DNA of 64,000 nucleotides from Candidatus Magasanikbacteria bacterium RIFOXYC2_FULL_42_28 (lineage in GTDB: Bacteria > Patescibacteriota > Patescibacteriia > Magasanikbacterales > GWA2-37-8): positions 12,502 through 76,501 of the forward strand of contig MFQZ01000002.1 in NCBI GenBank assembly GCA_001784435.1, read 5' to 3'. Shown piece by piece: positions 9,195-30,838 of the stretch (its first letter is position 1; the number at the start of each line of letters is the position of its first letter). The position numbers and the translations under genes were made by a program. The notes beneath the pieces are model-generated. The model was given only the letters and a program-made list of their open reading frames with translations. It made no database searches and was not told where the DNA came from.

Positions 9195-9551
9195 TTAACC
9201 GTTGCGTCTCGCCTGCATGCAGTCCCGGCAGTAAACTGGTTTGTCACCAGACGGCTGGAACGGCAATTGGGTGATAGCACCGCCACAGGAGGCGCAGGTC
9301 AAATTGACCGAGAACATCTGGCGTGGGCCGGAAGAGAAACCTCCGCGAGCGCCACCACGAGAAGCGCCACGATCATCGCCACGAGTCGCGCGAAAAGCGC
9401 GGTTGCACTCGTTGCAATAAACTGGGCGATCACCAGACGGTTGAAAAGGCAATTGTGAGATGTGTGTCCCGCATTTTGCGCAGGCCAAATCCACATCAAA
9501 CATTTGTCTGTCAGTACCAAAAGCCATAGTATTTGTTGTTTTTGCTCTCAA
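9195..9551 (-). CDS. tandem zinc-ribbon protein with Arg/Gly-rich linker
   Basis: Two internal repeats, each C-x2-C-x18-C-x2-C with a conserved QLPFQPSGD(R/K)PVYC. They are separated by RGDDRGASRGGARGG. Confidence 0.5.
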   Translation of the reverse strand: MRAKTTNTMAFGTDRQMFDVDLACAKCGTHISQLPFQPSGDRPVYCNECNRAFRATRGDDRGASRGGARGGFSSGPRQMFSVNLTCASCGGAITQLPFQPSGDKPVYCRDCMQARRNG

Positions 9552-9675: not shown

Positions 9676-10653
9676 CTATTTCTTTAAAGTTGTAATCGGC
9701 CGGCTCTGGGTAATGTAAAATTTTCCGCCTTCATATGCCCATTCAATATCGCAGGGGAATTTATAATGTTTTTCAATATTGGCGCTAATTTTCGCCAGTT
9801 CAATAATTTGTTTGCCGGATAATTTTTGCTTCTCACCTTCCGTGCCTAACTCAATCCACTCGTTCGCACTATCATCTTCTTTACCTTTAAATTCACCTTT
9901 TGATTTTTTTACTTTTACTAATTTTTTTGACTGCGCCCCAACATTTATATCAATGATACTCATTTCATTTTTACCGACCACATAACTATCAGGGGTAACT
10001 TGCCCCGACACTATCGCCTCCCCCAGGCCATAACCCGCTTCAATAATCATTTGATCGCGGTCTTCGGTAACCGGATGAACCGTAAAAGCAATTCCGGCAA
10101 TTTCCGATTGTATCATTTTTTGTACGACGACCGCCACGGAAACATAATGGTCAATCAGATTTTTCTCATGGCGATAAAAAATTGCGCGCGGCGTAAACAG
10201 CGACGACCAGCAGGTACGCACGGCTGCCGTAACATTTTTGCGTTCAATGTTTAAATATGTTTCTAACTCCCCCGCCCAACTGGCAATCGCGCTGTCTTCG
10301 GCCGTAGCGCTACTTCGCACCGCGACAAATTTCGCTTCCAATTTATCAAACGCCGTTAAAATTTCTTTTTCTAAATCTTTCGGAAATGGCCGATCATGAA
10401 TAGTATCGCGAATAACATTGCTGGCACGGTCAACCGAATTAGTATCATCAGGGTTAACTTCTTTCAAACGCGCAATAATTTCTTCTTCTAATTGTGTTTC
10501 TTTTAAAAATCGGTCAAACGCCGAAGCCACCACCACAAACCCGGGCGGAACCGGAATTTTTGCGTTCGTCATCTCGCCCAAAGACGCGCCTTTACCGCCG
10601 GCTTCGGGGACGGATTTTTTGGTGAGGTCTTTGAAAAATTTGATGTGGGGCAT
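9676..10653 (-). CDS. stand-alone PPDK_N / PEP-synthase N-terminal ATP-grasp (PEP/pyruvate-binding) domain protein
   Basis: Matches the PEP synthase N-domain throughout (GGKGASLGEM, AVRSSATAEDS, DIEWA...QSRP). There is no swivel or TIM-barrel domain. The start ATG lies 4 nt after the stop of 10658-11794. Confidence 0.85.
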   Translation of the reverse strand: MPHIKFFKDLTKKSVPEAGGKGASLGEMTNAKIPVPPGFVVVASAFDRFLKETQLEEEIIARLKEVNPDDTNSVDRASNVIRDTIHDRPFPKDLEKEILTAFDKLEAKFVAVRSSATAEDSAIASWAGELETYLNIERKNVTAAVRTCWSSLFTPRAIFYRHEKNLIDHYVSVAVVVQKMIQSEIAGIAFTVHPVTEDRDQMIIEAGYGLGEAIVSGQVTPDSYVVGKNEMSIIDINVGAQSKKLVKVKKSKGEFKGKEDDSANEWIELGTEGEKQKLSGKQIIELAKISANIEKHYKFPCDIEWAYEGGKFYITQSRPITTLKK

Positions 10654-10657
10654 AATA

Positions 10658-11794
10658 TTATTTTTTAATTAATGTTACAATTCCTTTATTCGCATCAACT
10701 TCTACCCAATCCCCGGTTTTTAAAATTTCCGTAGCATTTTTTACGCCAATAATCGCTGGAATTTTCAGTTCGCGAGCAACAACAGCCGCGTGCGAAAGGA
10801 CGCCGCCTTCGTTCGCAATAATTGCTTGAAATTTTTTAATAATGGCAACATCGTTAGGGTGCGTCGCACTCACCACTAATATTAAATCATTCCCAGGGAG
10901 TAATGTCAAAAGACGCGCGTCCAGACGATTGATAAATTTTACCGCTCGACCAATCACTTTTCCGCCCCCCCCCACCCCCTTACCGACAAGCCGGCGGTGG
11001 CTTGGGACGTTAACTTTTAAAAATTTCCGATTAATTTTGTCCACTATTTTTTTATTGGAAATAGTTAATTCTTCTTTATTTTCCGATGAAAAGAAAAAAT
11101 ATCCATTTTTTCGGTGACACAATTCTTGCAACTGATTATTATTCAAATTTAAATTGTCGTGTAAATTGACGCGTAATTCACTAATGGTAAAATACCGCAA
11201 GAGATCACCATCATAATTATATCGCCGACCGATTTGTTCGCAACAATTACTAACTATTTTCTCCACGCGCGGATAAATTTTGGCCATCTGCTCGCGCCGC
11301 GCGCTAATTCGCTCGATCAATTTTGCCTGATCCATCCTTTCATTTTTTGGGACACTGAAATACCTCCAAAAAACATTATATACTCCGATACCAGCGAGGT
11401 AACGCGAATAATGTTTAATTATTAAACACAAACATTTAATTGGATCGGCTTTTGCCAATACTTGCGCCTCTTTTTTCCAAATTAAACTATCATAATATAT
11501 TTTATAAGATAAAGCCAAAATTTTTGATAATTTTTGCTCATCATTTTGCTTCAACCAATCCGCAACTGATTTAATAATATAATTTTCATTAAACAAAAAT
11601 TTTAGTTCATTATCGCCACCACAAACCGCGACTGCTCGATAGGAAAAACCCATTATCCGACGCAACTGTCCCAGATATCCTTTTGCCACCGCGCTGGCAA
11701 AAAATAATGATAAATTTCTTTGACTGGCGAGCGCCAAGCCATATTTTTTAAGCTGTTTTGATAAATAATAATAGTCGCACGCGATTGGTTTCAT
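10658..11794 (-). CDS. swivel-domain paralog 1 (short N-domain plus C-terminal PEP-utilizing phosphohistidine domain)
   Basis: C-terminus GKGVGGGGKVIGRA...GGVLSHAAVVARELKIPAIIGV...GDWVEVDANKG is the PEP-utilizers mobile domain with the catalytic His. Confidence 0.7.
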   Translation of the reverse strand: MKPIACDYYYLSKQLKKYGLALASQRNLSLFFASAVAKGYLGQLRRIMGFSYRAVAVCGGDNELKFLFNENYIIKSVADWLKQNDEQKLSKILALSYKIYYDSLIWKKEAQVLAKADPIKCLCLIIKHYSRYLAGIGVYNVFWRYFSVPKNERMDQAKLIERISARREQMAKIYPRVEKIVSNCCEQIGRRYNYDGDLLRYFTISELRVNLHDNLNLNNNQLQELCHRKNGYFFFSSENKEELTISNKKIVDKINRKFLKVNVPSHRRLVGKGVGGGGKVIGRAVKFINRLDARLLTLLPGNDLILVVSATHPNDVAIIKKFQAIIANEGGVLSHAAVVARELKIPAIIGVKNATEILKTGDWVEVDANKGIVTLIKK

Positions 11795-11852
11795 AAATGA
11801 ATCTATTTTGTATACTCTGTTTCCAACCCTTATAATTGCCTATCAATTAATT

Positions 11853-12782
11853 TTATTCCTCTAACCTTTCGCCTCTTTTGAATCTAGAAACACGATTTTC
11901 TCGCGTAGCCATTCGCTCTTCAAACTTATAAAATAATTCTTCCACTTTGGACCAATCTAAACTCAACTTCTTGCCTTCAAATATTGCCTGTCTGTTAGGA
12001 TCAGTAAAAGAGCACTCAACTTTTTCATTACTGCCATTCCGTTTTATTTTAATCTTAAACGCTTCGGCTGGGGCAAAAAACCCGCCAATATCATCAACAT
12101 CCGATAATTTAACTTTTTTACCATTTTCATCCTCCACCTCCAATGTTTCTAATAAAAATGATTCATTAAAAAGACCATGGTTTACAATTGGCATAGCGAC
12201 CTTATTATCTGGGGTTACTCCCTTTTCAGCAAACTGTTTTAATAACCATAGATTAAAGGCGAGCCCTTCGGCTGCTTCCGCGCGAAAAGCCATATCTTTC
12301 AAACCCTCACGCAAGCCAACCTCTTGGGCACCCTGTCTTACTGTGGCACGCTCTTCTGGCGACAGACGACCATATTCGGGATGAGAACCAGCTTTGGCTT
12401 GAATTAAAGGTTTGGCGGCTTTAAGCATCGCTTGACCGTCTGGCCCTAATTCTTTATATGTAATTCCGCTTGCTTGATTAACCTGTCCGCGTTCTTGGCC
12501 AAACCCCTCTTCAATATCACTGGCAGTTTCGGCCGCGCGCCCTTCCATACTACCCACGCCTACTACACTATTATGTTCACCGCGTAAATCTAGACCAAAT
12601 TCCCGCGCTCGCGCTTTACCTTCTGGAGTTAAATCTTCAGTGTCGTTCCATTTAATAACTTCGCTAGTAGCCGGGTCAGTCCACTCACCTTTGCCACCAA
12701 AACGGTTAGAATGACGCATTAAATAAATATCCGTTTCGGTATTGTGTGTTAATTTTTCACTACTTCCTATATGTTCTGACAT
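11853..12782 (-). CDS. histidine phosphatase superfamily (PGAM-like) protein, paralog A
   Basis: LMRHS...LTPEGKARAREFG matches the RHG catalytic motif context. It is paralogous to 28438-29367. Confidence 0.5.
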   Translation of the reverse strand: MSEHIGSSEKLTHNTETDIYLMRHSNRFGGKGEWTDPATSEVIKWNDTEDLTPEGKARAREFGLDLRGEHNSVVGVGSMEGRAAETASDIEEGFGQERGQVNQASGITYKELGPDGQAMLKAAKPLIQAKAGSHPEYGRLSPEERATVRQGAQEVGLREGLKDMAFRAEAAEGLAFNLWLLKQFAEKGVTPDNKVAMPIVNHGLFNESFLLETLEVEDENGKKVKLSDVDDIGGFFAPAEAFKIKIKRNGSNEKVECSFTDPNRQAIFEGKKLSLDWSKVEELFYKFEERMATRENRVSRFKRGERLEE

Positions 12783-12793
12783 ATTTTTATATG

Positions 12794-13396
12794 TTAGTTA
12801 ATTAATAAATTAATTGATTGTTTTAATTTATCCATATTACCATCAAACACGATTCCTTTCATACCAATACTTTCACAATTAATCAGCATATCTTCTCGAT
12901 CATCAACATAAGCCGCTTCCTTTGGGTTGACGTGTGCTTTTGCGCAGGCCCCCACAAACATCTTTATATCAGGTTTGCGTAAATGTTCATAGCCAGATAC
13001 CATTCGCGCGGTTAAAACTTTTTCCAAGCCGGTTTTTTGGACAAAACGCGCGTACCACTCGGCCGGATGATTAGAAATAATGCCAGTGGCCAGTTGTTTA
13101 GAAATATCCTTGATATATTGTATCATGGCGACATTGGGTATTGTCAAATCATCAATTACCCTCACATAACATTCACTGTCAAATGGTATTTGTCCGGCTC
13201 GTTGCGCGCACATATTCAGATATTCTTTTTCGGTTATCAAACCCATGGTAAAATCTTTCCAACCTTGAAAATCATGTACCACGCGATAAAATTCTCCTTC
13301 GGGAATATTTTTCTCAATTTCATATTGTCTAATCCCAGATCTGAATCCTTCTTCACAAATCACTCCACCCATGTCAAAAAAAATGGCTTTAATCAT
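12794..13396 (-). CDS. HAD-like hydrolase (atypical motif I)
   Basis: N-terminus IFFDMGGVI (DxG rather than DxD) and a C-terminal YVDD motif. Confidence 0.5.
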   Translation of the reverse strand: MIKAIFFDMGGVICEEGFRSGIRQYEIEKNIPEGEFYRVVHDFQGWKDFTMGLITEKEYLNMCAQRAGQIPFDSECYVRVIDDLTIPNVAMIQYIKDISKQLATGIISNHPAEWYARFVQKTGLEKVLTARMVSGYEHLRKPDIKMFVGACAKAHVNPKEAAYVDDREDMLINCESIGMKGIVFDGNMDKLKQSINLLIN

Positions 13397-13402
13397 ATTT
13401 TC

Positions 13403-14881
13403 TCACTTAATCTTTCTTACCACCCCCGCGTACGCGTCAACTTCAACCAAATCACCTGTTTTTAAAAACTGAGTAGCAATCTTGGTCCCAATAACACAAG
13501 GGATTCCTAGTTCTCGAGAAATAATAGCGGCGTGGCAAGTAATACCGCCGTCGCTCGTGACAATAGCGGCGGCTTTTTTCATCGCCACTACAAACGATGG
13601 CGTGGTCATCATCGTAACCAATATCTCTCCTTCTCTCATTTCTGAAACTCGAGACGTTTCTAAAATAACTCTAACCAAACCCTGCGCTTTCCCCGACGAT
13701 GCCACTACGCCCTTAATTTCTTTTAAGGTTGGATCAATACGCGTTTCGCGATACTTATCAACTTCCTTGCCCCAAAATGATTTAAAAACATCTGTTCGTG
13801 AATCAAAATAAAAACCATGCATTTCATCTCTTGCCTCCAAGACACTCTCATCTGGTAATTTTCCAGTTTTTAAACCTTTGATGATTTCATCAATGCTAAG
13901 AAATACAACTTTGTCAAAACTCAATCCAAACTTCTCACCAATTGCGCACAATAATGGATAACCAAAATAATCAGTCCTCTGATAAAAGCGAACCAACTCG
14001 GTTTCAACAAAACTACTTTCAGCCAATAAATCTAATATTTTCTTATCGGCCACTTTAATTTTTAAGCGCCTAATCAATGCCTCTCTTTTTTCTCGTGACT
14101 TCTGACGATCAAAGGCCATAGTTCGCAATTTTGCTACTGGGTCACCCTTCTTGATATCATCAACAACTTCAATGTAAATATCCTCGGCAGTAGTATCTTT
14201 ACGAAGTAGAAACATGCTGTTGGCCCAATCGTATTTATTCTTAAATTCAACCAGTTCTTTTTTAACCGCCACCGGTAACTGAGAATATTTTAAATTTTGA
14301 AGTTTTAACTGTTTAATTTTTTTTGCCAAATGCAATATTTCAATTTCACGACGATAAAAAACTGACTCTCTATCAGAAAAAGAAATTTCAATCAATGTCT
14401 GCTTGGCCTCTTCTGGAGGCAGATGTCTTAGAATGTCAAAAAAAATACTTTCTAACAAATTACTTAAGCCACGGACAATATAATTACCGACCAACAAACT
14501 ACATACCGTTCTCCCGCGCAAATCAACATATTTTTTAAAATAATCTACCAAATCTTCGTTGTCGGCATTTTTCAATTTTTTATTTATTTCCACCATTACC
14601 AACGCGTTCTCTTCATCTTTCTGTCTGCGAGCATTATAAAAATCATCGAAGGTTCCTTTTTTTAATATGCGCCTAACAATTGACTTGGTATTTTTTTCAA
14701 AATCACTCTTATCATAATAATGTGCCCAATCCACATATTTATACCTTGATACTTTAAAACCAAAATCCGGGACATCTAACGTGGCTTTTTTAAGACAGAG
14801 ATAACGAATAAAAATATCGCGTGCCAAAAAAGCCCCCTTCCTTCTGGCAATCGCATACCATTTTATTTTTACTCTTGACAT
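13403..14881 (-). CDS. swivel-domain paralog 2
   Basis: C-terminus SDGGITCHAAIISRELGIPCVIGTKIATQFLKTGDLVEVDA. The N-domain carries the shared YDWANS-type motif. Confidence 0.7.
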   Translation of the reverse strand: MSRVKIKWYAIARRKGAFLARDIFIRYLCLKKATLDVPDFGFKVSRYKYVDWAHYYDKSDFEKNTKSIVRRILKKGTFDDFYNARRQKDEENALVMVEINKKLKNADNEDLVDYFKKYVDLRGRTVCSLLVGNYIVRGLSNLLESIFFDILRHLPPEEAKQTLIEISFSDRESVFYRREIEILHLAKKIKQLKLQNLKYSQLPVAVKKELVEFKNKYDWANSMFLLRKDTTAEDIYIEVVDDIKKGDPVAKLRTMAFDRQKSREKREALIRRLKIKVADKKILDLLAESSFVETELVRFYQRTDYFGYPLLCAIGEKFGLSFDKVVFLSIDEIIKGLKTGKLPDESVLEARDEMHGFYFDSRTDVFKSFWGKEVDKYRETRIDPTLKEIKGVVASSGKAQGLVRVILETSRVSEMREGEILVTMMTTPSFVVAMKKAAAIVTSDGGITCHAAIISRELGIPCVIGTKIATQFLKTGDLVEVDAYAGVVRKIK

Positions 14882-14919
14882 ATTATTTTGACTGTCAGTT
14901 AAATTTTAAATATCATCAT

Positions 14920-16413
14920 TTAGGCCCGTCCTAAAATTTTAACTAGGCCGGTGGCCGCATTGACTTCCAATAAATCACCATCGTGAATTATCCGAGTTCC
15001 ATTCATCGTAGCGATAACGCAAGGCACGCCCAGTTCGCGCGACACAATCGCCGCGTGCGAAGATAGCCCACCTTGGTCCGCCACAATCACCACTGCTTTT
15101 TCCATCGCTGGCACAAAATCGGGTGTGGTAAATTGCGCCACAAGAATATCCCCACGCAAAACTTTGTTAATTTCTTTTTTATCCATACAAATTTTCGCTC
15201 GACCAGTAATAATTCCACCAATGCAAGCGACTCGCCCTTGAATTGAATTCACCGCCGTATTGTCAACGGAATATTCTTTTTCCAATTCTTTTATTTTAAC
15301 CGGATCAGTAATCAAGGTAGTTTCAGAATCGCGTGCTAACATCGCGTAATTATGAAAACGAGCGTTCATTTCTTTTTCATCGGGTAGTGGCTTACCGGCC
15401 AAAGCACCAAACATTTCCGGAATTGATACCTCCATTATCCAATCAGGGTTAAAATGCGCGCGCTTGGCAATTTCCGCGTACATAAAACTGGCACCATAAT
15501 CCGCATTGAAAAATGCTTCCACGCGACGATTGCGAACATAGGAGTGAAGCTTGGCTTGGTCAATAATATGTTGGAAGTCAGGACGCGGTTTAATTTTATC
15601 TAATGCCCACGCATATTCATCGGCAACTTTTTGCTCGGAAGCATCATAAATCAAATCATCAATCTTTTTACCTTCACTAACCTGATGTTTCATTTCTTTC
15701 AAGCGATCGACAATATCGTCAAAATCATATGGCTTACTTGTAGCCAAACCACGGTTAATATAAGCAAACCTATCTAAATGCACGTCAATTTTTGCTGTCG
15801 CCTCGGCGGATAAATTATCCAAATCTTCATTGGCTGAAAAAAAATCTTTTGCAATCTGGGCTAATTTCCAACGTTCCTCACTGACTTCGGTCATCTGTTT
15901 TGGGTCAGTAAAAATCAAAACACATTTACGAAAATCGGGATCAGAAGCGGAAATATACTCCAACAACTTTGTTTCAATAGTTGATTCAAAATATTCATCC
16001 AAAGGATATTGCGCATACCAAGGGCCAGCCAAAACACGATACTCTTGCAATAATGGCTCTAAAATGCCAGCTATTTCCTCATTTGTTTTTTCTAACCAAT
16101 CAGTTTTCTTATATACCAAACCTTGTTTATACAAATGTTCATCTTGCTTTAACTCGCGATCGCAATATTTTTCAAACCAACCATCATCGGCTTGAGCATG
16201 CCCGATAATTTCCGCTTCAAATGGATCATATTCTTCTTGACGCCAATACATCATGTGATTTAAATAGGTACGATTAGGCATTGAAGTGCGTATGTCGGCT
16301 TTTTCCATGATTTCCTTCGTAAATGCCGAATTTATCATAAAACGAAGAAAAATGGGGAGTTTCCCCGATGGTTTAATTCTGTATTTTCCCGAACGCATTA
16401 CTGCTCCTGGCAT
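14920..16413 (-). CDS. swivel-domain paralog 3
   Basis: C-terminus DQGGLSSHAAIVSRELGVPCVIAT...GDLLEVNA. Confidence 0.7.
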   Translation of the reverse strand: MPGAVMRSGKYRIKPSGKLPIFLRFMINSAFTKEIMEKADIRTSMPNRTYLNHMMYWRQEEYDPFEAEIIGHAQADDGWFEKYCDRELKQDEHLYKQGLVYKKTDWLEKTNEEIAGILEPLLQEYRVLAGPWYAQYPLDEYFESTIETKLLEYISASDPDFRKCVLIFTDPKQMTEVSEERWKLAQIAKDFFSANEDLDNLSAEATAKIDVHLDRFAYINRGLATSKPYDFDDIVDRLKEMKHQVSEGKKIDDLIYDASEQKVADEYAWALDKIKPRPDFQHIIDQAKLHSYVRNRRVEAFFNADYGASFMYAEIAKRAHFNPDWIMEVSIPEMFGALAGKPLPDEKEMNARFHNYAMLARDSETTLITDPVKIKELEKEYSVDNTAVNSIQGRVACIGGIITGRAKICMDKKEINKVLRGDILVAQFTTPDFVPAMEKAVVIVADQGGLSSHAAIVSRELGVPCVIATMNGTRIIHDGDLLEVNAATGLVKILGRA

Positions 16414-16530
16414 ATAATTTTAGGTTAAATGTTGATTATATATTACACCTATATTTATATTACACCTTTTTTAAAATTCTGACAAATCAATTAACACGGT
16501 GGCCTGATAAATCCAAGTTATAAAAAATAA

Positions 16531-17760
16531 TCAAGAATAAGTATAGCCAGGGACAATTTGAATATCTTGAATTTCTGTTTCTTTAAGGCTATTCATTAAC
16601 GAACCGAGACATCCTGACGTTTTCGTCGGTAATTCTGTTACTATGTCAAAATCAACACCTGGATCATCACGCCAATCAAACCCGCCGACAAATTTAATAT
16701 CTTGTAAACCAAATGATTTTAGTAAGCCAGTAAATTCGTTAAAATACGTATACGGAAGCCTTGATGTGGCTTCGGCTGATATCACAAAGTAAGTATCTCC
16801 TTGCCTACCAACGCGCTTCACCCTTTCGATGGTTTGTGCCATTTTTGACTCTTCTTCAACAATGACGAGCGGCCCGCGATGTTCACTAAAAACGCGGTCA
16901 AACTTTGCTATGAGCTCCGAGCGTTCGGCTGGGGTCTTAGCATTTTTTTTACCAAATTGATCATAGTAATCCAAAAAATATGGATGTACTGCTCCCAAAA
17001 TATGCTCCGGTTCTTTTTTTTCAGTTGATTCCTGTTGTTGATTATGTTCCAATTTTAAAATTGCGCCAGGCACTTCCACCAAACCCATTGATTCATATTT
17101 TCGAATAAGCTCGCGAAACTTTTCATTTTGACGTACCGCAGTCTTAGTATCAGGATTAAGAACAGTTGTCTCGCTTGGAATACTATTCGCTAATTCAATT
17201 AAAAATTTATATTCAGTTGGTGACAATAGAACTGCATCTTCAAAAAATCTGGAAAAATGATCGGGGTCACGGTCAATGCCAAAAAGTTTTGGCACAAAAT
17301 TTTTTCCAAAATGCATGTAGATAACGAGGTCATTCGAAATACGAAACTGGCCGGGTAAATTTGGATCACTTGAAACTTTGCCGATCTCTATTATGGCTGG
17401 CACGCCCCGATCATTTCCTTTGTCTTCAAGGACAACCGCAAACGACCCTTCCAAACTATCACGATCCAATCTTGAATAATTATGAGATTTTTTTACAATT
17501 TCTACAAACGTTTTACTGATACGGGGATCTAAATTTTCCGGCTTGATAAAGCGGGTAAATAATGAACAACGACCAACATTATTTCCATCGATATCGCGAT
17601 CTTTAAGCGAACTTGAGCAGTAAACGTCGGAATATTCTCTAGTTCTATCAAATGTCCAGCCCGGATCAGGCACCGTTGTGATGGTGCCTTTTTGATCTGC
17701 CGGCGCAATATCAACCAAACTTTTTTCATCTGTTGGATGTCCAATATCACGTCTGCGCAT
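16531..17760 (-). CDS. hypothetical protein embedded in the swivel cluster
   Basis: 409-aa ORF with no motif I can recognise. Confidence 0.3.
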   Translation of the reverse strand: MRRRDIGHPTDEKSLVDIAPADQKGTITTVPDPGWTFDRTREYSDVYCSSSLKDRDIDGNNVGRCSLFTRFIKPENLDPRISKTFVEIVKKSHNYSRLDRDSLEGSFAVVLEDKGNDRGVPAIIEIGKVSSDPNLPGQFRISNDLVIYMHFGKNFVPKLFGIDRDPDHFSRFFEDAVLLSPTEYKFLIELANSIPSETTVLNPDTKTAVRQNEKFRELIRKYESMGLVEVPGAILKLEHNQQQESTEKKEPEHILGAVHPYFLDYYDQFGKKNAKTPAERSELIAKFDRVFSEHRGPLVIVEEESKMAQTIERVKRVGRQGDTYFVISAEATSRLPYTYFNEFTGLLKSFGLQDIKFVGGFDWRDDPGVDFDIVTELPTKTSGCLGSLMNSLKETEIQDIQIVPGYTYS

Positions 17761-17794
17761 ATGATAATATATATTTTACCAAAGTGAAATTAAT

Positions 17795-19243
17795 TTAATT
17801 TAAAATTCTAACAACCCCATGTTCGGCATCAACTTCAATTAAATCTCCATTTTTAATAATACTGGTAGCAAACTTAGTGCCAACAATACACGGCTTACCT
17901 AATTCGCGCGACACAATCGCCGCATGGCAAGTGGCACCACCATCATCGGTAACTATCGCCCCAGCGCGTTTCATCGCCGGCAAAGCATCGGGCAAGGTCG
18001 TGGTGGTTACCAAAATTTCACCTTCGACAATTTTCGCGTTCGCCTCTTTGGCATCTTTAGTAACAAACGCCCGACCCTTGCACTTGCCCTTGCCGGCAAC
18101 CAAACCTTTAATTTCTGCACTTTGATTTTTATGGTGAGACCACACCAATTTATCCGCCACTGCTTTGACGCGTATCCCCTCATATTTGTACAATTTACCG
18201 GAGTTAAAATACCACAGCATCCCCTGCTTACGTTTTTTAATTATTTTTTCCAGCACAAATTGTTCGCGCAATAGTAAATTTTCTACCTCCTGATTTTCAT
18301 AATACATCAAATCGTTAAAAGCAATCTTAAATCGACGTGATACCTCGCGCAAAACCCGATAGATAACTTGGTTGCTCCGCATCTGAATTTCTTTACGATA
18401 ATCATGATAAAGATTAAATTTATCCAATAAATCAAAATATACTTTAAACCGCGCCAACGGGATTTTATATTTAGCCAAAATTCTTTTACGTTCGCGTTTG
18501 ACCTTAATCGCAGTCAATTTTAAATCGTTTAATTCTCGCCGACGTGCCACCATCGCTTTCTTTTTTTCCAAAGCCACGTCCTTCGCCACTACATCAGAAG
18601 TAAGTTCGCCACTGCCATCCCAACTCATTTTCACCCAATCAAACTTATTCACAACTTTTAAAATATCCACTTTAGACGCCGACCGCCGCAATGACAATTG
18701 CAAAATTTCTTTATGATACGCGGCCACTGTTGACAAGGTCGCGGGATAAACCAAAGTCGCTAAATCTGGCGCGGATAATTCGCGCTTACTAAGCGAATTA
18801 ACCTTTTCTTTAAAAATAGTAGCGACATAATCATCAAACAGATCAACCGTGTACTCCGCATATTTAAGGTGGTCAACTGCTAGGCCAATAGCGCTGAAGC
18901 GAACTTTTAACAAATATTCCTTGTCAATTTTTTTTACATCAATTAACTTTAATTTTGACGTCTGTTCAAAAGTTTTTTTGCGATCCTTCTCAAATTGATA
19001 ATAAAGTTTTAGACGGGCGTTTTTGTTAGTTGACCATTTTTTAAACCAACCTCGAAATGATTTTTCTAAAATATCGGTTTTTCGCGCCCAAAAAAACTGA
19101 TCGCCAAAAAACATCACCGACCAACGGTTGATAATATAAGGATTTTTATCCAAAGGCAAACACAAAAAAACTAAATAATAGGAAATTGACTGCGGATACA
19201 AGTGGTCGCGTTCGTAAATTCTTAAATTATATTCTTTGCTCAT
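17795..19243 (-). CDS. swivel-domain paralog 4
   Basis: C-terminus DDGGATCHAAIVSRELGKPCIVGT...GDLIEVDA. The likely start is the internal Met (MSKEYNL), giving an ATGA overlap with the stop of 19240-19860. Confidence 0.7.
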   Translation of the reverse strand: MSKEYNLRIYERDHLYPQSISYYLVFLCLPLDKNPYIINRWSVMFFGDQFFWARKTDILEKSFRGWFKKWSTNKNARLKLYYQFEKDRKKTFEQTSKLKLIDVKKIDKEYLLKVRFSAIGLAVDHLKYAEYTVDLFDDYVATIFKEKVNSLSKRELSAPDLATLVYPATLSTVAAYHKEILQLSLRRSASKVDILKVVNKFDWVKMSWDGSGELTSDVVAKDVALEKKKAMVARRRELNDLKLTAIKVKRERKRILAKYKIPLARFKVYFDLLDKFNLYHDYRKEIQMRSNQVIYRVLREVSRRFKIAFNDLMYYENQEVENLLLREQFVLEKIIKKRKQGMLWYFNSGKLYKYEGIRVKAVADKLVWSHHKNQSAEIKGLVAGKGKCKGRAFVTKDAKEANAKIVEGEILVTTTTLPDALPAMKRAGAIVTDDGGATCHAAIVSRELGKPCIVGTKFATSIIKNGDLIEVDAEHGVVRILN

Positions 19244-19860
19244 ACTTTTTCGATTTTTAAAATATACATTAACCCGCCGATTTCGCAATACCAATCTTTC
19301 GGCCGTGCCCCTCCCTCGTCATTTAAAATATGATAAAACCGATAACTAAAATCAGGATTTTTTGCTTTCACGGTTTCGGCCGCGTTTTTGAAAAATACCC
19401 CATCAGCGAATTTGTCATCAGTATACACAACTGTATCATAACCCTCTAATACTTTTTTAGAAAGATAATCAACTAACATTGCTTCAGTTTTAACATTAGT
19501 CTCGCCATAATCAAAAGTGGAGTTAATTTTTTGAAAAAAAGAACGAATGTTAAAACCGACTTTCGGATTCAAATACTCCGCGCGCCAATCCATGCACTCC
19601 GCCAAACCCGTGCTGAAAGCTTCGTTATTTTTAGTCAAACTTAAAACTTCCTTAAAACCTTTGGCAGTTTGTAAGTTAAAATAATTTCCTAACTTGTAAA
19701 CTTCTTCATAGCCTTCTTCAAATTTTCTGGGCTCTGTCGCGTTATCAACTCCTTTTAATTTAATATATTCCTCGTAACTATCAAAATGAGTTAATTCTTT
19801 ATTCCACTTTTCAGGAAAAAGGGTGCCTGCCAAATCCCAAAGGTACAAAATTTTATTCAT
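19240..19860 (-). CDS. hypothetical protein, possibly a degenerate HAD-like fold
   Basis: The N-terminal LYLWDLAGTLF resembles the DxxGTL haloacid-dehalogenase motif I. The match is weak. Confidence 0.3.
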   Translation of the reverse strand: MNKILYLWDLAGTLFPEKWNKELTHFDSYEEYIKLKGVDNATEPRKFEEGYEEVYKLGNYFNLQTAKGFKEVLSLTKNNEAFSTGLAECMDWRAEYLNPKVGFNIRSFFQKINSTFDYGETNVKTEAMLVDYLSKKVLEGYDTVVYTDDKFADGVFFKNAAETVKAKNPDFSYRFYHILNDEGGARPKDWYCEIGGLMYILKIEKV

Positions 19861-21364
19861 ATCGTTTAATTATTTTTACTAAACCAATATTGGCGTTAAC
19901 TTCTACCAAATCGCCGTCTTTTAAAACATCCGTCGCAATAATTGTACCAATAATACAAGGGACACCAAGCTCGCGCGCGATAATAGCGGCGTGACAAGTA
20001 ATTCCGCCATCATCAGTAATAATAGCTTTGGCTTTTTTCATGGCCGGTAAATGTTCTGGTCTAGTCATAGAAGTCACCATAACATCACCTGAATTTATTT
20101 TATGATTATCACTACTGCTTAAAACTAATTTAACTCGACCGCGCGCGAACCCCAAAGAAGCAGGCATCCCTTTAAATTCAGAAATTTTAGATTCAGATTT
20201 TTTATATATTTTATCTAAAATTTTTCTAACCTCTTTTTTGGCGGTAATCACTCTTAAAATTTTTCCCCGACTAACCAAATACAGGCATCCGTTTTGGCGG
20301 ATTTTTAATTGTCTAATTATGTTATGATTGGATTTATGTGATAACAAACTCACAACATCTTTCGACGTACTATTAATTAATAAATTAAAATCCACACCAG
20401 CTCGCTTGGCCACTTCCCGCAAAAACCGATCATACAAAGTAGCAAAAGTAAGAGTAAATTCTTTGCGCTCATCTTGCCATTTAACAAAAATTTCGGTCAA
20501 ACGCGCAATGGCAATTATCTCCGGAGTAAACTTGTATCTTTTGAATAATGCCAATTTTCGTTTTTTTATTGCCACAATACTTTCGGGCGCTTTGATGTCC
20601 ACTAAAATGTGTTTAATTGATTCCTCTAAATTTTCTAACGTATATTCCTTCCAACCACGATAACTGCTTTTTATCCAAGAATACTTTTTTAGGTGTTTAT
20701 TTATCAATTCATTAAACTTTTTATTTTCACTTTTTTTAAGCCAATCTGCCAATTTATCATCAGTATTAAATCCAACCCGTCGCAATTTTATTACTATCTT
20801 TTTTAATTCGCTTTCCTCTCTGTTAATAAATGAAAAATCAGCGGAGGCAGTTAAGGGAGAAAAAATGCCGGCAAAATCCGAAATTCTATTTTTTTTACAA
20901 AAATCTTGTAGTAATCCCGACAAGCGTCTTTCCGCATAGAACACATACCCGTCAATAAATCCAGGCATAGAAACCTTGAACTCATAAAAATTTATAAACT
21001 TTTTTTGCCAAATGATCAATTGTTTCTCGCTTAATTTAGATAAATCATAATCATAATAAAAAGAATACCTTTTCATCATCAATTGATAATTTTTCTCCCA
21101 ACGCGCGCGCAAATTGATAATTGTCGCTGGATTACGCAAAAACTCTTTTATTACAAAAGAGCCGATGCGATTTTGGTCTTCCACCAAAGTTATCCAGTCA
21201 CCTTTTCCATCTCGGTAATTACACATGCAGAAACGAAAAGGTGGAATTTTTGTATTATAAAGCCGGCTGGTAAATCCGGTTCTGGTCATTGACAAAAACG
21301 CCAGATAGACATCAATATTTTTTTCAATATTTAACGGTTGTTTTACAAAACTATCTAAATTCAT
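19853..21364 (-). CDS. swivel-domain paralog 5
   Basis: C-terminus DDGGITCHAAIIARELGVPCIIGT...GDLVEVNA. The N-domain carries the KKYSWIKSSY motif. Confidence 0.7.
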   Translation of the reverse strand: MNLDSFVKQPLNIEKNIDVYLAFLSMTRTGFTSRLYNTKIPPFRFCMCNYRDGKGDWITLVEDQNRIGSFVIKEFLRNPATIINLRARWEKNYQLMMKRYSFYYDYDLSKLSEKQLIIWQKKFINFYEFKVSMPGFIDGYVFYAERRLSGLLQDFCKKNRISDFAGIFSPLTASADFSFINREESELKKIVIKLRRVGFNTDDKLADWLKKSENKKFNELINKHLKKYSWIKSSYRGWKEYTLENLEESIKHILVDIKAPESIVAIKKRKLALFKRYKFTPEIIAIARLTEIFVKWQDERKEFTLTFATLYDRFLREVAKRAGVDFNLLINSTSKDVVSLLSHKSNHNIIRQLKIRQNGCLYLVSRGKILRVITAKKEVRKILDKIYKKSESKISEFKGMPASLGFARGRVKLVLSSSDNHKINSGDVMVTSMTRPEHLPAMKKAKAIITDDGGITCHAAIIARELGVPCIIGTIIATDVLKDGDLVEVNANIGLVKIIKRYE

Positions 21365-21365
21365 A

Positions 21366-22853
21366 TTATTTTTGTATAATTTTCACGACTCCACGGTCGG
21401 CATCGACTTCCACCAAATCACCATCTTTTAAAACTTTGGTCGCGACTTTAGTGCCAATAATACAAGGAATGCCTAGCTCACGCGCTATAATAGCGGCATG
21501 ACACGTAAGACCGCCCTCATCAGTAATTATCGCTTTTGCTTTTTTCATCGCCGGTAAAAATTCCGGCTGGGTCATGCAGGCAACTAGGATATCACCTTGA
21601 CGCATTTTAGAGATTTCTTTTTCTCCTCGGCATACCTTGGCTATGCCAATCACCTTTCCCGAAGACGCACAGGCGCCTTTCAGTTCGGTTATTATACCAC
21701 CGTCTTGTTGCTGATTCATTTCTAAAATTTTGAAATACTTTTTCGCTTGCGCGCCAGAAAATACCAATCCTTTGAGGCCAGGCAAAAGAACAAATAAGCT
21801 TGTCTTTCGGCGTTTTTTTAATTCCGGCATAATACCCGGCAACTTCTCCAATTCTAACGCACGAATATAGCGCAGATCGTTCATAGAGACATTAAATCTA
21901 CGACTAATCTCTAACAACAAAGAATCAAGGTAGTGAATTGTTCGTGTCAGACATTCTTTACGCCGATCGTGAATTTGAAAAATTTTGTCACCGATGGTTA
22001 ATAAATTTTTTAATTCCTTATTTTTTATTTTTTTTCGTAGGGCATCACGCTTCTTAACACGAATAGATAACGATTGATAATCAAAGATAATTTTATCCAA
22101 ATCAACTTTCTTGGATAATAACTCCCTGATTTCATCTACAAAATCTTCCGGTAATAATTTTTTGGCCGAAGTATATCCATTTAATTTCCAAAAATATTTT
22201 TGCTGATGTTTTATTAATTTTTTCAGTATGTCGGGATATTTTTTTAAATCTGTGACTGATGAAAGAGTAATTTTTTTATTCTTAATTAAACGAGCCAGCA
22301 AACACAATTCATAATGCTCGATTATCATAAACGAATGGAGACGCGGGGTCGTTAAGAGTATTGTTTTATCTAAAATATCATCTTTAAATTCTTCTGCGAT
22401 TAATTTTCTGATTTTATCTTCAGTAGTCAAACTAAACCCTTCAACGATGTGTGACACACTGCACAAATAAGCAGACAAATCATTAATTTGCCGCCAAAAA
22501 GAAAAAAGCTGTTTGACACTTGCTGTTTGCCAGTTTTTTCGTTCAATTCTATCGTAAGCAGACAAAACTTCGTGGCAAATTTTTTCATTTTCACGAACCA
22601 AATAACCTGGATAATTTTTGTTACCTGCGCATTTTTTCAACAATATCTCTAAAATAGCGCAAAGATCATCCCAAGCATAAGCATAGTAACAGACATCATC
22701 TTTAAAATATTCAATACAGGCGCAATAACCAAATCCCAAAGCTTTTGGCATATCGCGCACCATGGAAAACGCCGGACCATAAAGCATCGCTGGAGTAGCG
22801 TTAAACCCTTGCAAATACCAATTCTTTTTCAATAAATTATCTACATTTATCAT
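21366..22853 (-). CDS. swivel-domain paralog 6
   Basis: C-terminus DEGGLTCHAAIIARELGIPCIIGT...GDLVEVDA. The N-domain carries QQKYFWKLNGY. Confidence 0.7.
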   Translation of the reverse strand: MINVDNLLKKNWYLQGFNATPAMLYGPAFSMVRDMPKALGFGYCACIEYFKDDVCYYAYAWDDLCAILEILLKKCAGNKNYPGYLVRENEKICHEVLSAYDRIERKNWQTASVKQLFSFWRQINDLSAYLCSVSHIVEGFSLTTEDKIRKLIAEEFKDDILDKTILLTTPRLHSFMIIEHYELCLLARLIKNKKITLSSVTDLKKYPDILKKLIKHQQKYFWKLNGYTSAKKLLPEDFVDEIRELLSKKVDLDKIIFDYQSLSIRVKKRDALRKKIKNKELKNLLTIGDKIFQIHDRRKECLTRTIHYLDSLLLEISRRFNVSMNDLRYIRALELEKLPGIMPELKKRRKTSLFVLLPGLKGLVFSGAQAKKYFKILEMNQQQDGGIITELKGACASSGKVIGIAKVCRGEKEISKMRQGDILVACMTQPEFLPAMKKAKAIITDEGGLTCHAAIIARELGIPCIIGTKVATKVLKDGDLVEVDADRGVVKIIQK

Positions 22854-22855
22854 AA

Positions 22856-24388
22856 CTATTTCAAAATTTTCATTACCCCCCTATCAGCATCAACTTCAAT
22901 TCTATCGCCTGTTTTTAAAACTCTAGTAGCATCTCTCACTCCTATTATACAGGGCATGCCAAGCTCGCGCGATAGCACCGCTGCGTGCGAAGTAATGCCA
23001 CCTTGTTCTGTCACAATCGCCGCCGCTTTTCTCATTATGGGCACAAATTCAGGCGTAGTGTTATTGGTGACTAAAATTTCTCCGGTTTTAAACTTAACCA
23101 TTTCTTTGGTTTTTTTAATTACCCGCACAATTCCCGCAACTTTTCCTTTACAAGCGGCGACACCATATAAATATCCCGCCTCGGCAATAGTTGTTGCCGG
23201 AAAAAATTTAAAAAACTTATCGGCATCCGCACCAGATGATAAAACATATTCACCTTTATGAGTGACAGCCCAAAACACTTTTTGTTTGCGCTTGGAAATT
23301 TCATCTTTATAATCTATTTTTCGCAGCAATATTCCGGCTATTTCTGGTAAAATCACAAATGACAAATCACGTTTAGAATAATTCGCGCGCCGCCCAACTT
23401 CTCCTAAAAATTTATCAAAACCAGCCATACCCATACATACCCCACTTTTACGAATATCCTTCCATTTGCTAAATAGATTTGCTGTCTTAATGATATTTTT
23501 ATATTTTGAAGGAAGTTCAATTTCTTTTTCCGCTTGCTGTCGAGCTTTTTTTGCTTTTAATAAATACGCTTGCTTAACACGCCAATCATTGAACGCCCAC
23601 GAACCACTTCGATTATTATTTAATAATTTTAATATTTTTTCATAAATTTCTAACGCGCCATATCGTTCGACATGAAAATAATTATTCCGCATCCAGTGAT
23701 AGTTTTGTTCGTGGCGATTGATTAACTTTTGAAAAGCGATTGATAATTTATTAAACTCTGGTAATTTATCACCATACGCTTTATAAAATTTGGCTGTCAA
23801 AGCCAACAAATCATGTTCTTCTTGCAAAGTAAAAGATAGATGAATAGGCGCGACTAATTCAGCAATTATTTTTTCAAAACTATCGGAATGGGTCTTTTTT
23901 AATTCTTTGCCTAATAATTCTTGTAACCAATCACTCTTGCCGGTGGACATAAACGAATCGCAAATATAGGCAACACCCCCGGCTTTTACGTACAACTCAT
24001 AATAATTTTTAAACAAATTGTATAATTGCTTATCGGATAATTTTTGTAAATCTAATTCATCAGCTTTTTTATCTAAAATCAAAAACTTATGCCAATCCTT
24101 TAGCCATTTATTATAATAACGCAAAATCCAGTCATACTTTTTTGAAACATTTTTTATAATAAATTGGCGAACTGCCAACGAACTATTCGAATCGGCAAAC
24201 CAACGCGCATGATCTTCGCGCAAAAAACAAAAGCAGTGTTTGTAGTGCCGAGGAAAATCCTTGGCTTTTTGAAACACATCACTTTCAGAAGAAGCAAACA
24301 AAGTAAAAACTTTGGAATGAAAATCTTTACTAAACTGTCCGGTTTCTCGTTTTAATATTTGTACGGAAAATTTTTTTATTTCTTTCAT
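22856..24388 (-). CDS. swivel-domain paralog 7
   Basis: C-terminus EQGGITSHAAVLSRELGMPCIIGV...GDRIEVDA. The N-domain carries EQNYHWMRNNY. Confidence 0.7.
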   Translation of the reverse strand: MKEIKKFSVQILKRETGQFSKDFHSKVFTLFASSESDVFQKAKDFPRHYKHCFCFLREDHARWFADSNSSLAVRQFIIKNVSKKYDWILRYYNKWLKDWHKFLILDKKADELDLQKLSDKQLYNLFKNYYELYVKAGGVAYICDSFMSTGKSDWLQELLGKELKKTHSDSFEKIIAELVAPIHLSFTLQEEHDLLALTAKFYKAYGDKLPEFNKLSIAFQKLINRHEQNYHWMRNNYFHVERYGALEIYEKILKLLNNNRSGSWAFNDWRVKQAYLLKAKKARQQAEKEIELPSKYKNIIKTANLFSKWKDIRKSGVCMGMAGFDKFLGEVGRRANYSKRDLSFVILPEIAGILLRKIDYKDEISKRKQKVFWAVTHKGEYVLSSGADADKFFKFFPATTIAEAGYLYGVAACKGKVAGIVRVIKKTKEMVKFKTGEILVTNNTTPEFVPIMRKAAAIVTEQGGITSHAAVLSRELGMPCIIGVRDATRVLKTGDRIEVDADRGVMKILK

Positions 24389-24418
24389 ACCGCCATGAAT
24401 TCTTAGTCGGCGATTTAA

Positions 24419-25459
24419 TTAAAAATAGTTTTTAACCGCAAATTCAAATTGTTGAATAAATAATTCTTTTAAATATGCCAAACTATTTTGCTCATAAAAT
24501 AATAACATGGCTTTTTTGTATTCAGTTTCATCTAAACTGCGCAGAGACATCGGACACCAATCATTGGCCAACAGCAAAGCATTCGCGACAATACGACTTG
24601 TGCGTTTATTGCCATCAACAAACGGCTGGGTGTAGGCAATGAGAGCCAGAGCAAACAGCGCTTTTTCTGGCGGACTTTTAGTTTTATTTATTACTTCAAC
24701 TATTTTTGCTACCGCGTCTTCGATTTGGAAGCGATTATCAATCGGCTGATAGTTGGTACCAATAATCCGCACTAAAATACTGCGCCAGTTATCAGGCACG
24801 TCCAAATCTTTTATAAGCAACGAATGAACGTCGCGTATTTTGATTGGCTTTAATAATTTAAATTTGGTCGGATCGGACAAAATATAATCAAAAGCGACTT
24901 TGTGATTTAAAATCATTATCGCTTCTTTTTTATTATGCCCACTCGCTTCACGTGCTTCTTTAATTAAAGTTTCCGTTTCAAAAAGCGAATAGGTATTACC
25001 TTCCAAACGCGATGATTTCCAGCTAATTTCAATTGTCAGCCGTTCTAATTCTTTTTTTAAGGCGATTGGACTTAAGCGCGTGCGTTTAGTTTGATATTCA
25101 TTGTTTATCTTTTCCAAACGCGTCAATTCCGATGAGGTAAATACATTTTCAAACCAATTAAAAATTTCCCAATTAAATTTTTCTTTAATATCGCGTTGAT
25201 CTTGTGATTTTTTAAAATACACATCTGGAGAATAATAATATAACAATGGATTACTAATTTTGGGCAAATAGACCACTGCTCTCGCCTTCCCCTTTTTAAT
25301 AATCAAATTAGCGATTAACAACGCTTCCAAATCACGTAAAATCGTTGGTTTGGAAATTGCATCAAATTTAGTGGCGATTTCAGCTAAAATTGAACTTTGG
25401 GGCGCCTCGCCATTTTTTTGAAGATACTCTAAAATAGCGTTTTGTCGCTGTGTTAACAT
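24419..25459 (-). CDS. Fic/Doc family protein with N-terminal wHTH. The motif is Doc-type (NKR) with His replaced by Gln
   Basis: The Fido motif reads QPFVDGNKRTSR where the canonical form is HPFx(D/E)GN(G/K)R. An HTH-like N-terminus is present. Confidence 0.55.
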   Translation of the reverse strand: MLTQRQNAILEYLQKNGEAPQSSILAEIATKFDAISKPTILRDLEALLIANLIIKKGKARAVVYLPKISNPLLYYYSPDVYFKKSQDQRDIKEKFNWEIFNWFENVFTSSELTRLEKINNEYQTKRTRLSPIALKKELERLTIEISWKSSRLEGNTYSLFETETLIKEAREASGHNKKEAIMILNHKVAFDYILSDPTKFKLLKPIKIRDVHSLLIKDLDVPDNWRSILVRIIGTNYQPIDNRFQIEDAVAKIVEVINKTKSPPEKALFALALIAYTQPFVDGNKRTSRIVANALLLANDWCPMSLRSLDETEYKKAMLLFYEQNSLAYLKELFIQQFEFAVKNYF

Positions 25460-25508
25460 AAAAAATTAAGGTTAAATATAATCGTCTCATTTTTATGTCT
25501 TAATTGTA

Positions 25509-26927: not shown

Positions 26928-26932
26928 AATTG

Positions 26933-28432: not shown

Positions 28433-28437
28433 ATGGT

Positions 28438-29367
28438 CTATTTGTCACTCGTCTGAAATTTCTTATTAAACTCATCGCGGTCGGCCACTAATTCCTCTAA
28501 AACTACTTTAGGGGCGACCAGATCTATATCCTCATCACCCAGCTTAACTTTAATGTGAATTTCTTGTTGCGCAGGACCTGTGTTCTCAATCTCTACCCGA
28601 AAACCTTGCAATTCTTTAAACATCGGCCCAATTTTTGCCATCACTTCATTACGCCGATCCACCCCTTGTAATTTTTCAACCAACCTCAGAAGAAATGATT
28701 CATTTATAGTTGCGTGCGTTCCCAAATATCTTTCCATTTGGCTTTTTAATGGCTCATATTTTTCAGGCTTACGACCGACTAAGCGATTAAAATTTCCACC
28801 CATCTCTACATAGCGCAAAATTAAATCAGCAACATTACCAGCCACTCGGGTAATACTGGTCATTTGGGGATCGTTATCGGCTATCGCCACCTGATCACTA
28901 TTCTCCACCATAAATTTAGTTACCCAACCCTCGGCATAGGCCTTATCTAATAAACCACCCTTATCAGTGAAAAAATCCAATCGTGAATCAGGAATAATTT
29001 TTTTGCCATATTTAAGCTGTTTGGCAATTTCCGCTTCAATTTCTTCCATACTCATTCCCGTGGTATCGGGCTGGCCGGAAAGCATTACGTGCGTAGCCGA
29101 CTCCTGCGCCCGTTTACGCGGACTGGCAACGACCGCGGAAACTTCTAATTGTGGGGCAAGTCCCAGCCCTTTTTCTCTAGCGGCTGTTCTGGCAGACGGA
29201 ATTAAACGAACATCTTCGTCTGTCTGTCCGTCTGCGGTTTTTTCCTTTTTACCATGACGCATAAATTCCAACACGATTCTGGAGCGCGTTTTGCCCTCAA
29301 ACTCACTAATGCCACCATTCTTTCTCTCTGAACCAGGCATCTCAAAAGGATTCCTTGAGCTACACAT
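28438..29367 (-). CDS. histidine phosphatase superfamily (PGAM-like) protein, paralog B
   Basis: FMRHG...LIPSARTAAREKGLGL. Same length (309 aa) as paralog A, with a shared C-terminal region. Confidence 0.5.
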   Translation of the reverse strand: MCSSRNPFEMPGSERKNGGISEFEGKTRSRIVLEFMRHGKKEKTADGQTDEDVRLIPSARTAAREKGLGLAPQLEVSAVVASPRKRAQESATHVMLSGQPDTTGMSMEEIEAEIAKQLKYGKKIIPDSRLDFFTDKGGLLDKAYAEGWVTKFMVENSDQVAIADNDPQMTSITRVAGNVADLILRYVEMGGNFNRLVGRKPEKYEPLKSQMERYLGTHATINESFLLRLVEKLQGVDRRNEVMAKIGPMFKELQGFRVEIENTGPAQQEIHIKVKLGDEDIDLVAPKVVLEELVADRDEFNKKFQTSDK

Positions 29368-29385
29368 ATATTTTATGGTTAAAAA

Positions 29386-30837: not shown

Positions 30838-30838
30838 A

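Follow-up and report, generated by a model that had tools for sequence, protein, structure and literature searches.

A lone ATP-grasp gene behind an array of eleven swivel-domain genes in Candidatus Magasanikbacteria: a probable split dikinase with one shared phosphoryl donor

We analysed a window of 64,000 nucleotides (contig MFQZ01000002.1, positions 12,502 to 76,501) from the metagenome-assembled genome of Candidatus Magasanikbacteria bacterium RIFOXYC2_FULL_42_28, a member of the Patescibacteria or Candidate Phyla Radiation (CPR); this origin agrees with the homolog listing of the ATP-grasp protein described here, in which P0001 is 100% identical. The subject is a minus-strand gene cluster, probably encoding a split dikinase, in which genes for swivel components (H; PEP-utilizers domain, phospho-histidine) precede one gene for a stand-alone ATP-grasp component (I; PPDK_N). 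The core of the cluster consists of the following features:

9676..10653, minus strand: ATP-grasp (PPDK_N) protein of 325 amino acids (aa), the putative phosphoryl donor (I); PF01326, 332 bits, profile positions 2-313 of 328
10654..10657, minus strand: 4-nt spacer TATT between the TAA of the swivel gene (10660-10658) and the ATG of the ATP-grasp gene (10653)
10658..11794, minus strand: swivel protein, short-form H, 378 aa; PF00391 at residues 304-371 (E 6e-24), its sole Pfam domain
13403..32314, minus strand: array of 10 other full-length H paralogs, 472-510 aa, with accessory genes between them; PF00391 in each
13403-14881, 14920-16413, 17795-19294, 19853-21364 and 21366-22853, minus strand: H paralogs with PF00391
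22856-24388, 25509-26927, 26933-28432, 29386-30837 and 30839-32314, minus strand: H paralogs with PF00391

Six-frame hidden Markov model (HMM) searches of the whole window recovered exactly 11 swivel-family open reading frames (ORFs) and exactly one PPDK_N ORF. PF01326 is the sole Pfam domain of the 325-aa ATP-grasp protein, which has no swivel or substrate domain. In the 378-aa H, the N-domain (about residues 1-260) is helical; a Gly-rich linker (VGKGVGGGGKVIG, about residues 268-282) leads to the C-terminal swivel domain, whose catalytic motif GGVLSHAA contains the catalytic His, H335. Both ORFs are complete and their motifs are intact. An earlier reading of the same DNA from its letters alone, the first-pass annotation, had described a swivel gene, the shortest of its paralogs, followed through TAA-TATT-ATG by the only PPDK_N gene of the window, and all of these sequence-level statements were correct, on the minus strand. 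Compared with the 495-aa paralogs, the 378-aa H lacks profile positions 1-78 and 218-268. It belongs to a short-form subfamily with 23 full-length orthologs (347-377 aa, 32-38% identity), and these orthologs, together with the confident fold of its model, speak against a truncated pseudogene, an idea that was rejected.

One architecture is common to all 11 H proteins in the alignment: a mostly helical N-terminal part of about 260-400 aa and then the swivel domain. The catalytic His is invariant among them, and the residue two positions before it is Thr in 8 of the 11 (T-C/S-H), Leu in the 378-aa H, Ser in 14920-16413 and Met in 30839-32314. The swivel domains are well conserved (mean pairwise identity 51.5%, range 37-66%), whereas the N-domains have diverged widely (mean 17%, range 11-24%), which is the pattern expected if the paralogs have one common docking partner and diverged specificities. 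Because 11 H proteins with conserved swivels and diverged N-domains are accompanied by only one ATP-grasp, the latter is most likely a shared hub. By analogy with characterised systems, we consider it likely that the terminal pair belongs to a split small-molecule dikinase of the RPH/PpsAB type, as its last H gene and its only I gene, that the ATP-grasp serves as the hub for the whole array, and that the 4-nt gap is not a device for 1:1 expression.

Split dikinases are not new. The first-pass annotation had taken a single polypeptide with the ATP-grasp ahead of the His domain to be the rule for every known dikinase, which is contradicted by the characterised two-component dikinases PpsAB, HpeHI, CreHI and AcvAB (PMC12167813; bioRxiv 10.1101/2022.04.28.489975), and H stands first both in Azoarcus and in the acv operon. 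In HpeHI, HpeI is the ATP-grasp and HpeH contains RIF-binding-like and swivel domains (Dexter et al., PMC12167813), and CreHI and the phenylphosphate synthase PpsAB were grouped with HpeHI in one subfamily (PMC12167813). The split relatives characterised so far all have small phenolic substrates (PMC12167813), HpeHI/AcvAB being an acetovanillone / 4-hydroxyacetophenone kinase (PMC12167813). The operon acvABCDEF of Sphingobium SYK-6 starts with the 71-kDa His component AcvA, continues with the 40-kDa PPDK_N protein AcvB and also encodes the phosphatase AcvF (bioRxiv 10.1101/2022.04.28.489975). On plasmid pAZKH of Azoarcus sp. KH32C, a gene for a 611-aa 'PEP-utilizing enzyme' (ppsA-like) is followed after 13 nt by one for a 375-aa 'PEP/pyruvate-binding domain-containing protein' (ppsB-like), and then by a CBS-domain protein gene and ppcBDAG. 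From the acvAB order and the Azoarcus pair it follows that the split, the 'inverted' order and the short gap are features of characterised or annotated relatives; a split dikinase with its His component first is thus already known, including in phenol-degrading bacteria.

The window proteins resemble PpsAB, HpeHI, CreHI and AcvAB in that H (helical substrate-binding domain plus C-terminal swivel) is split from an ATP-grasp of about 325-390 aa, and in that RPH is the closest solved fold for H (for the window H, from predicted structures). The order of genes, H first with a short gap, is shared with PpsAB and AcvAB (4 nt in the window, 13 nt in Azoarcus), and as in AcvAB, with its phosphatase gene for AcvF, phosphatase-type genes lie in the same cluster. 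However, the four known systems have one H per I while the window has 11 H per I, and their H proteins have about 610-640 aa while those of the window have 378 or 472-510 aa. They also differ in that the window is without nearby carboxylase or aromatic-catabolism genes and that the hosts of window-type systems are Patescibacteria and DPANN with tiny genomes. PpsA, CreH, HpeH and AcvA are about 40-45% identical to each other, a close kinship in which the window H has no part; judged by sequence, it is a distinct and distant clade. RPH (5HV1, 5FBS/T/U) has the same three modules and presumably the same swivel mechanism, and both H models match its structure best over their whole length, but its modules form one chain of about 865 aa that begins with the ATP-grasp, whereas the window ATP-grasp is separate and encoded after the H genes. 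PEP synthase (8A8E, 9DAE, 2OLS) differs in that the window proteins are split and H has an unrelated helical N-domain; the PEP/pyruvate TIM-barrel domain was absent from the Pfam scans of the ORFs examined, no six-frame search having been made for it.

By sequence, the ATP-grasp protein aligned end-to-end with the N-terminal ATP-grasp of the archaeal-type PEP synthase 8a8e (1.8e-70), with residues 3-316 of Listeria RPH 5fbs (1e-55) and with the 387-aa stand-alone chain 9goj (1.8e-47), which we take to be HpeI, the crystallised ATP-grasp component of HpeHI (9GOJ is mentioned in PMC12167813). The best 120 listed homologs are all stand-alone proteins with PF01326 only (312-413 aa, 67-100% identical). 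PEP synthase gave the top sequence similarity for both components (ATP-grasp 1.8e-70; swivel profile E 3.7e-50, with the motif GGxT[CS]HAA). By structure, RPH came first: the AlphaFold2 model of the 378-aa H (predicted local distance difference test, pLDDT, 87.6) had RPH 5hv2/5fbt as its top Foldseek matches in the PDB (E about 1e-9), and the model of the 495-aa paralog 21366..22853 (pLDDT 93.8, predicted template modelling score, pTM, 0.90) matched RPH in the same database at E 1e-14 and a query TM score (TMq) of 0.51-0.58 over 470-560 columns. Only RPH entries matched this 495-aa model beyond the swivel; PPDK and enzyme I matched the swivel alone (TMq about 0.2). In addition, the full-length H profile aligned to RPH residues 456-866.

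In the mechanism that we propose by analogy with PpsAB, HpeHI and RPH, the 325-aa ATP-grasp would bind ATP and dock transiently on the conserved C-terminal swivel of an H protein. As in PpsAB, it would phosphorylate the catalytic His (H335 in the 378-aa H), the beta-phosphate going to His with release of AMP and Pi; the swivel would then return to its own helical N-domain and phosphorylate the substrate bound there. Associated phosphatases may recycle products or reset His~P. Each H protein would have its own substrate, and one ATP-grasp would charge all 11 in a many-to-one manner. In HpeHI, HpeH alone catalyses phosphotransfer and its His mutant is inactive (PMC12167813), and no stable complex of HpeH and HpeI was detected in vitro (PMC12167813). 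A transient interaction such as that of HpeHI (PMC12167813) would be compatible with one donor and many acceptors. The analysis itself shows the domains, the intact catalytic motifs, the similarity of fold, the synteny and the polarity; from these we infer phosphotransfer between the proteins, many-to-one usage of the ATP-grasp and small-molecule substrates.

Synteny was compared across 80 species-level loci (L012-L091) in GTDB genomes of Magasanik-, Falkow-, Kuenen-, Doudna-, Kerfeld- and Parcubacteria, and 45 of these loci have at least 5 kb on either flank of the ATP-grasp gene. An ORF that fuses ATP-grasp and swivel was found in none of the 80; a canonical-order fusion (P0170, 597 aa) appeared only among distant relatives. 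The first-pass annotation had named a fused ORF of canonical order in related genomes as the finding that would speak against a genuine two-gene arrangement, and its view stands: none of the 80 is fused, both ORFs are intact with no frameshift or pseudogene, and the junction is kept in the relative L004. Same-strand H genes lie upstream of the ATP-grasp gene in 37 of the 45 loci and any downstream in only 5, and the H genes total 114 upstream, 16 downstream and 1 on the opposite strand. Therefore, 'swivel genes first, ATP-grasp last' is a strongly conserved polarity. The ATP-grasp is 61-88% identical across species, and the best-matching H in the same loci about 26-60% over partial alignments, the higher values being for the swivel domain only.

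Several observations weigh against the assignment to a split RPH/PpsAB-type dikinase. The window H is 130-260 aa shorter than HpeH or PpsA, and HpeH, CreH, PpsA and RPH carry Met two positions before the catalytic His, where the window H mostly has a PEPS-like Thr; because its swivel motif is PEPS-like, regulation or chemistry may differ from RPH/HpeH. A profile of the N-domain alone found no PDB relative by sequence. Sequence homology of the H N-domain to the RIF-binding domain of RPH was therefore rejected, and the link to the RPH substrate-binding domain that the predicted models suggest is structural only. Neither the ATP-grasp nor H reached the cutoff of a curated NCBIfam family: scores against the RPH equivalog models (NF041857 / NF000283) fell short (NF041857, 271 and 54 bits vs cutoff 999), as did those against TIGR01418 (335 and 75 bits vs cutoff 740), the cutoff of NF005057 was likewise far off, and PRK08296 sub-models matched the swivel region only (42-117 bits vs cutoffs 578-730). 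Finally, 6 of the 45 loci have no H gene within 10 kb of the ATP-grasp gene, so that physical linkage is not obligatory.

Besides the core genes, the cluster and its borders contain the following features:

9195..9551, minus strand: zinc-ribbon protein, 118 aa, with two CxxC-x17-CxxC repeats; TIGR04272, 95.8 bits
11853-12782, minus strand: His_Phos_1-like protein, 309 aa; weak N-terminal His_Phos_1 match, E about 1e-5
12794-13396, minus strand: HAD hydrolase, 200 aa (Pfam)
16531-17760, minus strand: 409-aa ORF inside the array; no Pfam, NCBIfam or PADLOC match
19240-19860, minus strand: 206-aa ORF inside the array; no Pfam, NCBIfam or PADLOC match
24419-25459, minus strand: Fic/DOC-domain protein, 346 aa, inside the array; PADLOC models SoFic and PDC-S04
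28438-29367, minus strand: second His_Phos_1 paralog, 309 aa; weak N-terminal match, E about 1e-5
32363..34288, minus strand: VirD4/TrwB-like P-loop ATPase, 641 aa; PF10412 and PF12696

The phosphatase-like genes at 11853..13396 separate the terminal pair from the remaining array. The two 309-aa His_Phos_1 paralogs matched no curated family and could be phospho-histidine or product phosphatases. His_Phos_1 or HAD genes also occur in the arrays of other species, and relatives of the His_Phos_1 genes are neighbours of ATP-grasp or swivel genes in L001, L008, L011 and, immediately upstream of the ATP-grasp gene, in L003/L012. Downstream, the zinc-ribbon gene, whose relatives are labelled PF23477 zf_Tbcl_2, has a near-consensus extended -10 promoter-like site at 9667-9639 (11/12 matches) and a terminator at 9178-9148 with a 14-bp stem, and is probably a separate transcription unit. 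Since this strong promoter-like site and the terminator bracket the next gene downstream, the ATP-grasp gene is probably the last of its own transcription unit. Chromosomal housekeeping genes (dnaB, recR, clpB, mraW, murJ, lepA, a Mur ligase gene and ftsEX) surround the cluster.

In Magasanikbacteria the backbone order is VirD4/TrwB-like ATPase, variable array, ATP-grasp and CxxC zinc-ribbon protein; among the 80 loci, the VirD4-like ATPase gene lies upstream on the same strand in 25 and the zinc-ribbon gene downstream in 24. Between the ATPase and ATP-grasp anchors the array comprises anything from 0 to 11 genes, and identity between its members in different species is only about 27-38%. In L020, L034 and L037 the ATPase gene abuts the ATP-grasp gene with no swivel genes between them. 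In L001 the anchors have 89% and 75% aa identity to those of the window, but its five H genes are only 27-38% identical to the window H. The DNA of L004 is about 99-100% identical through the array and the first ~150 nt of the ATP-grasp gene, then falls abruptly to about 84-86% in the rest of this gene and to 82-87% downstream (window 10464-10764), which suggests a recombination breakpoint inside the conserved ATP-grasp gene.

The H family extends far beyond these loci. At E<=1e-10, a search with the 495-aa paralog among 90%-identity clusters yielded over 5,000 relatives, which belong to Patescibacteria and DPANN archaea (Woesearchaeota, Nanoarchaeota), and the N-domain-only profile matched 5,298, 3,704 and 910 representatives of 50%-identity clusters at E<=1e-3, 1e-10 and 1e-30, respectively. 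Many N-domain relatives contain 2-5 matched stretches per polypeptide, up to 2,648 aa (P0314, P0315, P0317, P0369, P0258 and P0264, the last two with two PEP-utilizers domains each), and look like tandem H-H(-H) fusions. A swivel-HAD_2 fusion, P0303 of Woesearchaeota, is genuine, its HAD_2 match being above threshold. Precomputed PF02350 (UDP-GlcNAc 2-epimerase) labels on some longer relatives (within the group P0265, P0269, P0273 and P0303) had raised the idea of a sugar kinase. The labels look spurious, the hits being below the gathering score (that in P0265 overlaps the swivel domain), and the idea was dropped because tandem H-H fusion accounts for the long proteins. For a many-to-one, hypervariable array of this kind in CPR and DPANN no prior account was found in the literature searched; a CPR resistome survey lists 'rph-like' hits only (PMC8651080). 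More tentatively, as one possibility among several, we suggest that a single, highly conserved ATP-grasp is the 'charger' for a hypervariable library, in which up to 11 substrate-specific phospho-histidine modules are kept at a recombination hot-spot between the genes for the ATP-grasp and the VirD4-like ATPase; widespread in CPR and DPANN, the two radiations of ultra-small symbionts, it would be the means by which many scavenged, host-derived or toxic small molecules would be phosphorylated.

The same island could be read in another way, in which the modules take part in a phospho-relay or modify macromolecules (proteins, or envelope and host polymers), or are effector/immunity modules linked to the VirD4-like ATPase. 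The hypervariability (0-11 genes), the VirD4/TrwB-like ATPase upstream in 25 of the 80 loci and the recombination breakpoint inside the ATP-grasp gene would suit such modules, as would the Fic (SoFic/PDC-S04) and NUDIX genes in or beside the cluster and the PEPS/PtsI-type Thr of the swivel motif; moreover, VadK of M. tuberculosis is a PPDK-derived, non-canonical regulatory kinase (PMC13400623). However, the whole-length fold match is RPH, a small-molecule kinase, and small phenolics are the substrates of every characterised split relative (PMC12167813). None of the PADLOC models matched a swivel protein or the ATP-grasp; generic models alone matched their Fic and VirD4-like neighbours. Pfam showed neither a secretion signal nor a toxin domain. 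We regard this explanation as unlikely, and membership of the ATP-grasp and swivel proteins in a defence system was rejected for want of a PADLOC match.

A second alternative takes the terminal genes as a dedicated cognate pair, in which the 378-aa H is specific to the ATP-grasp, the 4-nt coupling sets a 1:1 ratio and the other 10 paralogs have another donor or none. The first-pass annotation had likewise seen in the 4-nt junction a special coupling that fixes the stoichiometry of donor and acceptor. The two genes do abut, no terminator-like site was found between them, the short form is a conserved subfamily, and some swivel gene lies at most 100 nt upstream of the ATP-grasp gene in 13 of the 45 species (swivel-only stubs in 4 of the 13). 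The identical 378-aa gene with its TAA-TATT-ATG junction is also kept in L004/L005, but only in this near-identical relative. Elsewhere the gene that abuts the ATP-grasp varies between species: a 495-aa-type H, a 104-108-aa swivel-only ORF, a His_Phos_1-like gene, an MNT/HepT toxin-antitoxin pair or a VirD4-like gene. The 378-aa orthologs themselves sit in other places, being solitary in L009 (whose contig also has genes for an archaeal-type ribosomal protein S6e and a NOG1 GTPase), mid-array and five genes from the ATP-grasp in L010, and first in the array in L011. Further, no second PPDK_N was found in the window for the other 10 paralogs, and HpeH and HpeI form no stable complex that could be detected (PMC12167813). 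With 11 acceptors per ATP-grasp, a variable abutting gene and displaced orthologs, the claim of fixed stoichiometry finds no support. As for the junction, 9 of the 18 in the co-directional cluster are at most 11 nt long (-8, 1, 1, 2, 4, 5, 5, 6, 11) and no Shine-Dalgarno-like sequence was found at -5 to -15 for the cluster genes, so that the 4-nt gap is ordinary operon compaction, typical of this operon; specific translational coupling was dropped, tight junctions being the rule here. We therefore think a dedicated pair improbable.

A fission artefact, a pseudogenised remnant of a PEP synthase or RPH gene, or an assembly error might be suggested by the best sequence scores of both proteins, which are against PEP synthase models, and by the absence of a TIM-barrel domain from every ORF scanned (Pfam; no six-frame search for it), but this is effectively refuted by the synteny data, since the arrangement recurs in independent assemblies with none of the 80 species fused, the gene order is opposite to what simple fission leaves, the ORFs are full-length with intact motifs, the ATP-grasp is strongly conserved (61-88% identity) and the H N-domain forms a family of its own (3,704 clusters at 50% identity, E<=1e-10).

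The shared-hub reading has implications beyond this genome. In a lineage of reduced genomes, about 16 kb is spent on 11 diverged acceptors that apparently share one ATP-grasp, and CPR bacteria and DPANN archaea together have thousands of uncharacterised 50%-identity N-domain clusters. Should the hub model hold, the two-component dikinase subfamily, only recently recognised, would no longer be confined to aromatic catabolism but would include a modular kinase system, open to expansion, of symbiotic 'dark matter' microbes; and if the more tentative reading of the array as a library charged by one donor is also true, its many-to-one architecture would have no described counterpart among dikinases and would constitute a modular combinatorial kinase in genome-reduced symbionts. 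The array is experimentally tractable and could help to assign functions to the large H family.

When comparing the window with L004, we also observed smaller divergent patches at 19762-19465 (68%), 17664-17365 (88%) and 16464-16165 (90%). In L004 the ATP-grasp gene is immediately followed by a 2.5-kb insertion (11039-13633) with genes for a 248-aa protein, a 156-aa protein and a Band_7 protein, and beyond the insertion 75 bp of the 3' end of the ATP-grasp gene are repeated (window 9749-9675 vs L004 13559-13633, 90.7%). A Band_7 gene stands behind the ATP-grasp in L006/L007 as well, so that the window may have lost this segment rather than L004 gained it.

Among the genes embedded in or near the array, Fic homologs were found in 7 of the 80 related loci (57% identity in L008, for example), and NUDIX genes occur in or beside the cluster. 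The 409-aa ORF had no homolog in the 80 related loci, and the 206-aa ORF had homologs in 5 of them and is the gene most diverged from L004 (74% identity). The listed TTG start of the H paralog 17795-19294 overlaps the upstream 206-aa gene by 55 nt, and the L004 counterpart was called 17 codons shorter (482 aa); the true start is therefore probably downstream of 19294. More generally, Shine-Dalgarno-like sequences 5-15 nt before the start are lacking in almost all of the 26 minus-strand genes examined at 6481-36279, which suggests that this organism probably does not rely on initiation led by such sequences, and the upstream regions are A/T-rich.

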